Below are positions 50,728 to 52,401 of a DNA stretch of 64,000 nt, piece by piece. Position 1 is the first letter of the stretch, and each line of letters starts with the position of its first letter. This DNA comes from Escherichia coli. GTDB lineage: Bacteria; Pseudomonadota; Gammaproteobacteria; Enterobacterales; Enterobacteriaceae. The stretch lies in assembly GCF_041248615.1 (NCBI RefSeq), contig NZ_CP158426.1; one strand, written 5' to 3'. Position numbers and translations under genes: made by a program. The notes beneath the pieces are model-generated. The model was not told the origin of the DNA. It saw only the letters and a list, made by a program, of their open reading frames with translations, and made no database searches.

Positions 50728-52401
50728 ATGAATATAAAGACGATTAACGTCAGCCTTTTGTCTTTTTCTATTATTACAGCATTGTTTCCGTTGAACGCGT
50801 TGGCAACAAAATTAACCATTGAGCAGCGCCTTGAACTGCTTGAAAATGAATTGTCGCAAAATAAACAAGAGCTGAGAGCAACACAGAATGAACTGGGGGT
50901 ATATAAATCCCGACTTTCGACCTTACAAAAAAGTATTACGGAAAATAAATACAAATCAGCCTCACTTGCTGAAATATCAGCGACATCTCCCGTCGCTGAT
51001 AACATCAAAAATGAAAACGGTGAACAGAACTCGTCTGCCGCAGCGCATACTATAAATGGATCGCAGCAAGTTGCCGTTATTGAAAGTAAAGGCGACAAAA
51101 CCACTATCGAAAGCGTGACCCTGAAAGATATCAGTAAATATATAAAGGATGATATTGGGTTCAGCTATCAGGGGTACTTCCGCTCAGGCTGGGGTACCGG
51201 AAATCATGGCTCACCACAAACATATGCAGCGGGTTCTCTGGGACGTTTTGGTAACGAGATGAGCGGTTGGTTTGACTTAACCTTAAATCAGCGTGTTTAT
51301 AATCAGGACGGTAAAACGGCAAATGCGGTCGTTACCTATGATGGCAACGTAGGTGAGCAGTATAACGATGCCTGGTTTGGTGACAGTGCCAATGAAAATA
51401 TCATGCAGTTCAGTGATATTTATCTGACAACGCGAGGTTTTTTACCCTTCGCGCCAGAGGCAGACTTCTGGGTAGGCAAACATAAACTCCCGCAATATGA
51501 GATCCAAATGCTGGACTGGAAAACCTTAACCACGGATGTCGCTGCGGGTGTGGGGATTGAAAACTGGGCACTTGGTGTAGGGCTGTTTGATATGTCCTTA
51601 AGCCGTGATGATGTCGATGTTTACTCTCGTGATTTTACGCGTACCAGTCAGATGAATACCAATTCTGTGGATGTTCGTTATCGCAATATCCCGTTATGGG
51701 ATGATGCAACATTATCATTAATGGCTAAATATTCCGCACCAAATAAAACGGATCAACAACAAGATAATGAAAATGACGACAGTTATTTTGAAATGAAAGA
51801 TAGCTGGATGCTGACTTCTGTTTTACGGCAAAACCTGCAACGCGATACGTTTAATGAATTTACGTTACAGGTTGCCAATAATTCCTATGCCAGCAGTTTT
51901 GCCAGTTTCTCAGATGCCAGTAACACGATGGCGCATGGTCGCTATTACTATGGTGACCATACCAATGGGATCGCCTGGCGTTTAATCTCTCAGGGCGAGA
52001 TGTATCTTACTGACAATATTATTATGGCTAACGCGCTTGTCTATTCTCATGGCGAAGATGTTTATAGTTATGAAAGTGGCGCTCATAGTGATTTTGACAG
52101 TATTCGCACCGTAGTAAGACCGGCCTGGATCTGGAATACATGGAATCAGACGGGGCTTGAATTAGGCTGGTTTAAGCAACAGAACAAAACACAGCAGGGT
52201 GTAACACTAAATGAATCGGCTTATAAAACGACACTCTGGCATGCATTGAAAGTGGGTGAAAGCATTTTAGGTTCACGACCAGAAATTCGCTTCTATGGAA
52301 CGTATATCAATATTCTGGATAACGAATTATCGAATTTTAAGTTTAATGAGAACAGCAAAGACGAGTTTATGGCCGGCATCCAGGCGGAAGTCTGGTGGTA
52401 A
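50728..52401 (+). CDS. LamB/ScrY-family carbohydrate porin with N-terminal coiled-coil extension, 557 aa (bgcH-like)
   Basis: Track ORF 557 aa; signal peptide, heptad-like [19 protein letters not shown] region, C-terminal aromatic WW terminus typical of LamB-type barrels. Confidence 0.85.

Follow-up and report, generated by a model that had tools for sequence, protein, structure and literature searches.

The porin gene and the parts of its product

We analysed a stretch of 64,000 nucleotides of the Escherichia coli contig NZ_CP158426.1 (hereafter the window), in which positions 50728-52401 of the plus strand carry a gene that RefSeq names 'carbohydrate porin'. It is a genuine and intact open reading frame (ORF) encoding 557 amino acids, with an AAGGA ribosome-binding site 7-8 nucleotides 5' of the ATG, and it is found in 2553 of 5426 complete E. 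coli genomes (47%). The product is a BglH-like beta-glucoside porin with a coiled-coil extension of the type found in the sucrose porin ScrY; this architecture is already catalogued, and the operon has already been described. The gene is probably the porin gene of the bgc operon, for which we take the name to be bgcH. The gene and the parts of its product are as follows.

50728..52401, plus strand: carbohydrate porin gene, intact ORF of 557 amino acids plus stop codon (Pfam LamB and Sugarporin_N)
50728..50805, plus strand: putative signal peptide, residues 1-26 (read from the sequence; aligns with the signal peptides of BglH, ScrY and LamB)
50809..50937, plus strand: coiled-coil helix, residues 28-70, six heptads (heptad test, AlphaFold2 helix, Pfam Sugarporin_N at 30-56)
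50938..51120, plus strand: flexible linker, residues 71-131, with disorder predicted for approximately 74-131 (predicted local distance difference test score, pLDDT; no heptad periodicity; pattern of column identity)
51121..51156, plus strand: short pre-barrel helix, residues 132-143 (AlphaFold2 helix with a pLDDT of approximately 64-82, inside a conserved motif)
51163..52398, plus strand: LamB-type beta-barrel, residues 146-557, with a WW C-terminus (Pfam LamB at 147-557, AlphaFold2, Foldseek)

Cleavage of the signal peptide is likely to fall between NALA and TK. A Pfam search of the whole porin at E values up to 0.01 returned LamB (residues 147-557, E = 8.9e-82) and Sugarporin_N (residues 30-56, 29.2 bits, the gathering score being 25.7) and no other family, and the roughly 100 orthologues in a public protein collection carry the same two families as precomputed annotation. 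We ran AlphaFold2 twice, with 47 and 65 aligned sequences, the second set having more sequences that cover the extension. Both models concur in a helix at residues 31-73, disorder at 76-128, a short helix at 132-143 and a barrel at 146-557, with predicted template modelling (pTM) scores of 0.71-0.73. The subfamily is small: in a library of 1.84 billion proteins, E values up to 0.001 are reached by only 269 representatives of 50%-identity clusters, and among these homologues the extension ranges in length from none to approximately 140 residues.

The initial annotation, made from the DNA letters without database searches, had described a barrel-like region ending in WW, and this is borne out. 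The WW terminus is present, the barrel is modelled at residues 146-557 with pLDDT values above 90, and the LamB profile (PF02264) is matched over its whole length, positions 1-378 of 378, by residues 147-557 with 276.5 bits against a cut-off of 25.1. The first five Foldseek matches in the PDB were 1mpr, 8xcj, 1mal, 1a0t and 1oh2, with E values from 5e-26 to 2e-17 and target template modelling (TM) scores of 0.77-0.80; the maltoporins of Salmonella and E. coli came first (E values 5e-26 to 8e-25, TM-scores 0.77-0.79), followed by ScrY (5e-18, 0.80), and general porins lay far lower. A single-sequence phmmer search of PDB sequences gave no barrel match even at E = 10; a profile of the family reached maltoporin (1e-111) and ScrY (3e-44).

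In order to compare the residues that line the channel, we used an alignment of four sequences. Five of the six positions of the maltoporin greasy slide are aromatic in the porin, with LamB Y6, Y41, W74, F227 and W420 corresponding to Y150, W181, W216, F375 and W556, respectively. The polar track is represented by R152, R173, D183 and D263, at the positions of LamB R8, R33, E43 and D116.

The region between the signal peptide and the barrel had been described as approximately 100 heptad-like residues of low complexity, and only part of this description stands. Residues 28-70 do form six clean heptads, in a continuous register whose a and d positions read K I L L L N L T L Y L L I (nine of 13 being L, I, V or M), but this segment has only some 43 residues, and residues 71-146 show no 3.5-residue periodicity and are only mildly low in complexity (3.71 bits, compared with 4.14 in the barrel). 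The register is significant, given that the observed a/d count was reached in only 11 of 20000 shufflings of these residues, and no other 42-residue window of the porin matches its heptad score. The corresponding AlphaFold2 helix (residues 31-73) has pLDDT values of 83-92 in the second model, and the only matches of the single porin sequence to PDB sequences were weak ones, to tropomyosin and a designed coiled coil, over residues 19-70.

Conservation was measured over 12 orthologues, whose five genera are Escherichia, Citrobacter, Salmonella, Enterobacter/Pantoea and Kluyvera. Within the coil, the a, d, e and g positions are the best conserved (0.85-0.97) and the c and f positions the least (0.51-0.61), which argues that the coiled coil is under selection. 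As read from the sequence, opposite charges occur in three of five g-to-e' pairs (R34-E39, E41-K46 and E55-K60), and this is compatible with a parallel, in-register homo-oligomer.

Across the same orthologues, which are 75-83% identical overall, the whole extension aligns without a gap, so that the length of the linker is fixed. Residues 76-128 have pLDDT values below 50. A hairpin at residues 114-129 in the first AlphaFold2 model, also with pLDDT below 50, was not reproduced in the second, and we therefore take this segment as disordered. Column identity is uneven along the region, with conserved blocks at 87-99 (0.88) and 113-146 (0.86) lying between variable stretches (0.48-0.49). The first block reads SPVAENIxNENGE, and another conserved stretch reads QQVAVI..G.KTTIES.

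The short helix ahead of the barrel falls within a motif shared by the porin and BglH, TLKD(I/F)SK(Y/F)(I/V)KD(D/E)IGFSY, which is also common to more distant homologues, including one without a coil (P0134), and which ScrY lacks. The helix might fold back and act as a latch or gate at the periplasmic opening of the barrel, with the coil serving simply to hold three copies together. The retention of the motif in BglH and in distant homologues, even in P0134 where the coil has been lost, and the moderately confident AlphaFold2 helix at 132-143 speak for such an arrangement, and coiled-coil 'neck' domains are proposed to regulate pore accessibility in FapF, according to a passage in PMC5557850. 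A contact between helix and barrel is nevertheless a supposition, the pLDDT of the helix is just 64-82 and the motif is missing from ScrY, and we consider a latch very unlikely.

Comparison with BglH, ScrY and maltoporin

The closest characterized relative is BglH (YieC) of the E. coli K-12 bgl operon, with 53% identity over porin residues 20-557, an identity that takes in the start of the coil. BglH is an aryl-beta-glucoside-specific porin, as stated in PMC2646131 with reference to Andersen, Rak and Benz 1999. The two proteins share their layout from N- to C-terminus – signal peptide, Sugarporin_N coil (residues 29-59 of BglH, 45.6 bits), linker, TLKDxSKxxKDxIGFSY motif and LamB barrel – and both genes lie within operons of PTS (phosphotransferase system) and phospho-beta-glucosidase genes. 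They differ in that BglH is 19 residues shorter, the porin having an insertion of approximately 20 residues at about 107-126, and in the continuous heptad run, which extends for 43 residues in the porin and, as read from the BglH sequence, for only about 28 in BglH before a proline. The PTS that goes with the porin belongs to the lactose/cellobiose family, its IIB, IIC and IIA being separate proteins, and the regulator is of the GntR type, in contrast to the BglF/BglG antiterminator system; the porin gene also lies elsewhere on the chromosome, between eamA and marB.

The initial annotation had likened the extension to that of sucrose porins, and the comparison with ScrY (scr regulon; PDB 1A0S, 1A0T and 1OH2) supports this. 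ScrY is likewise PTS-linked, has a LamB-family barrel and is among the best structural matches. The Sugarporin_N model (PF11471, 'Maltoporin periplasmic N-terminal extension'), which the porin matches above the gathering score, also matches ScrY at residues 28-58, directly after the signal peptide, and in the porin, BglH and ScrY alike it lies a few residues past the signal peptide. ScrY is, however, only 23% identical to the porin, and its barrel begins at residue 97 with neither a long disordered linker nor the TLKDISKY pre-barrel motif. The number of residues ahead of the barrel is 27 in LamB, 96 in ScrY, 126 in BglH and 146 in the porin studied here. The ScrY coil is described in PMC6173795 as a trimeric periplasmic coiled coil that stabilizes the porin, and a passage in PMC5557850 has it contacting incoming sugars and routing them to the inner-membrane transporter, as a proposal; both cite Dumas et al. 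2000.

The ScrY sequence used here was taken from a scrKYABR plasmid locus, found with a ScrY query that it matches at 100% identity. Weak tblastn matches on IncF plasmids had first been taken for ScrY and were rejected: they belong to an unannotated remnant of a LamB-family porin downstream of blaCTX-M-14. This remnant (L003:4001-4978, plasmid pHK17a, NC_016039.1) lies just downstream of the beta-lactamase gene, recurs on similar IncF plasmids, among them many E. coli plasmids of about 70 kb, and is approximately 23% identical to residues 147-481 of the porin. Presumably it was picked up, together with the beta-lactamase gene, from the donor chromosome.

Maltoporin (LamB) shares with the porin its Pfam family, fold, WW C-terminus, five greasy-slide residues and four polar-track residues, but is only 27% identical, has no N-terminal extension (its barrel begins at residue 28) and works with an ATP-binding cassette (ABC) transporter and the binding protein MalE. 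We also considered whether the porin might itself be a maltoporin; its scores of 204.6 and 118.7 are far under the NCBIfam maltoporin cut-offs of 394 and 765 (NF006860 and NF009061, respectively), and we therefore conclude that it is not one, although it belongs to the LamB family. The proposal that this is a specialized porin rather than a generic LamB agrees with these scores, with the identity to BglH, and with the cellobiose-family PTS and 6-phospho-beta-glucosidase genes of the operon.

The operon, its islet and the interrupted glucosidase gene

The porin gene is the fourth of five operon genes, which encode PTS IIB, IIC and IIA, the porin and a 6-phospho-beta-glucosidase, with a divergent regulator gene. 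The features around the porin gene are listed below.

47689..48387, minus strand: GntR/UTRA-family regulator gene, divergent, probably bgcR (Pfam GntR and UTRA; RefSeq annotation)
48586..48897, plus strand: PTS IIB gene (Pfam PTS_IIB)
49011..50333, plus strand: PTS IIC gene (Pfam PTS_EIIC; TIGR00410, the lactose/cellobiose-family IIC, 337.7 bits against a cut-off of 236)
50355..50672, plus strand: PTS IIA gene (Pfam PTS_IIA)
50676..50703, plus strand: hairpin with an 11-bp stem (UUUCCUCCAGU...GCUGGAGGAAA) between the stop codon of the IIA gene and the start codon of the porin gene (minimum free energy -20.3 kcal/mol, z = -3.4 against shuffles)
52426..53088, plus strand: 5' part of the 6-phospho-beta-glucosidase gene bgcA (Pfam GH1, profile positions 5-200 of 453; collinearity with an intact locus, L001, stops at 53088)
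53089..54420, minus strand: IS3-family insertion sequence (IS) element of 1332 bp (blastn against L001; rve, rve_3 and HTH_21 domains; RefSeq 'IS3 family transposase')
54421..54848, plus strand: 3' remnant of bgcA (the window from 54421 onward corresponds to L001 from 11711 onward, the intact gene reaching to 12138 of L001)

No run of U residues follows the hairpin at 50676-50703, and it may be an element of transcript stability or processing that sets the level of the porin relative to that of the PTS proteins.

The six genes form an islet (within 47645-55150 of the window) between eamA and marB. These two genes are only 30 bp apart in K-12 (L014), where the porin gene is absent, and the GC content of the islet is 39-46%, compared with approximately 46-51% in its flanks. 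The bgc operon consists, according to passages in PMC3585215 and PMC4488073, of five genes and a GntR-type activator, BgcR, and serves in the use of cellobiose, arbutin and salicin. In its gene content (IIB, IIC, IIA, phospho-beta-glucosidase and a GntR regulator) and its presence in a part of the E. coli genomes, the locus fits the bgc operon of Neelakanta, Sankar and Schnetz 2009. In place of 'carbohydrate porin', the annotation can more exactly name a BglH-like porin for beta-glucosides that belongs to the bgc islet and has a ScrY-type coil, and beyond annotation the finding has little significance.

In the strain studied here the operon is damaged, because the IS3-family element takes the place of 349 bp of bgcA. 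The exact junction occurs in only one of the 5426 complete genomes (NZ_LT599825.1), which indicates that the damage is recent and private to a lineage. With its glucosidase gene broken, this accessory pathway appears to be decaying in this particular strain, and one may ask whether the extension of the porin is itself a functionless evolutionary leftover in a decaying cryptic operon. The beta-glucoside operons of E. coli, bgc included, are indeed termed cryptic in a passage of PMC4488073; bgcA is destroyed; and the length of the extension varies widely among homologues, some of which have none. Yet among the orthologues of five genera the extension has kept the same length without insertions or deletions, its conservation follows the heptad positions, and the rarity of the IS junction sets the damage apart as a late and local event. 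We accordingly give a functionless extension very little credence.

The proposed uptake route and the possible role of the extension

We consider it likely that the porin is a trimer with sugar-specific channels through which beta-glucosides diffuse, and that it forms the outer-membrane part of an optional E. coli uptake operon and feeds the adjacent PTS. The C-terminal 412 residues would then provide the LamB-family barrel, whose aromatic line and polar tracks would pass the presumed substrates (beta-glucosides such as arbutin, salicin or cellobiose) through the outer membrane; the IIB/IIC/IIA PTS in the inner membrane would import and phosphorylate the sugar, and the 6-phospho-beta-glucosidase encoded just downstream would cleave the phosphorylated product. 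LamB-family porins are trimers, and the three helices of residues 28-70 would therefore most likely zip into a single parallel coiled coil in the periplasm. A parallel trimeric coil is likely also from the charges of the g-e' pairs. Such a coil would be approximately 6.4 nm long (43 residues at 0.15 nm each) and would hang from the barrels by three flexible linkers of about 60 residues. By analogy with ScrY, it may stabilize the trimer, act as a low-affinity periplasmic guide that leads sugars toward the inner-membrane transporter, or both.

Several points weigh against this explanation, or against parts of it. The sixth position of the greasy slide, W358 in LamB, aligns with a leucine (L514) in the porin. 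The Sugarporin_N score is marginal and barely over its cut-off, compared with 45.6 bits for BglH and 40.7 for ScrY at the equivalent positions, and both AlphaFold2 models are of a single chain, so that the trimeric state of the coil is a supposition. The porin linker is far longer than that of ScrY, which makes a rigid 'extended slide' beneath the pore less plausible here than in ScrY. The identification of the locus as bgc comes from gene content and from a secondary description of that operon. Finally, the IS element has destroyed bgcA, so that the pathway is probably non-functional in this strain, although the porin gene itself is intact.

The extension had also been suggested to dock peptidoglycan or a substrate-binding partner, and our results lend this no support. 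As a tether, the coil or the conserved linker blocks would bind peptidoglycan or some periplasmic partner, so as to anchor the porin or recruit a binding protein. From the rise of the helix and the residue counts, a coil of about 6.4 nm with a linker of some 60 residues could span the distance to the peptidoglycan, and the blocks at 87-99 and 113-146 are conserved nearly as well as the barrel, which suggests some specific interaction. However, the Pfam search to E values of 0.01 found no peptidoglycan-binding or other interaction domain in residues 1-146, and no domain of the anchoring families (OmpA_C-like, SLH or LysM) anywhere in the porin. It is well established that uptake by a PTS works without a periplasmic binding protein, and the cognate uptake system here is a PTS; moreover, none of the ten coil-bearing porins whose neighbourhoods we examined adjoins an ABC system with a binding protein. 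We regard a tether as quite improbable.

Those ten belong to a survey of the gene neighbourhoods of 16 LamB-family porins, the other six being without a coil. Seven of the ten coil-bearing porins lie beside PTS genes and three stand alone, with none beside ABC or major facilitator superfamily (MFS) genes. The six without a coil comprise two linked to PTS, two to ABC and one to MFS genes, and one that is unclear. The difference in PTS linkage (7/10 against 2/6) is not significant (one-sided hypergeometric p of approximately 0.18), and in this small sample it is at most suggestive of a tendency for the coil to accompany PTS-coupled porins.

Among sugar porins with periplasmic coils, BgcH offers a natural variant in which the linker is unusually long and of fixed length. 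The conserved length of the linker, its conserved blocks and the pre-barrel motif are the only places where novelty might lie. It is conceivable, though in our judgement unlikely, that the extension of the BglH/BgcH branch is not merely a ScrY-like coil but a device of three parts – coil, fixed-length linker with conserved blocks, and amphipathic pre-barrel helix – in which the helix might be an undescribed functional element, for example one that latches the channel from its periplasmic side or that contacts the PTS permease in the inner membrane. If this were true, it might explain why coil-bearing LamB-family porins are found beside PTS genes or alone, and never beside ABC or MFS genes.

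Both PTS-linked porins without a coil, P0159 and P0134, came from the survey. P0134 (461 amino acids, with a short extension; L017:6001-13386) has kept only the pre-barrel motif of the extension, and its gene adjoins genes for a sulfatase, a radical-SAM/SPASM maturase, a PTS EIIBC protein and a GH1 enzyme, neighbours which suggest that it is the porin of a pathway for sulfated glycosides.

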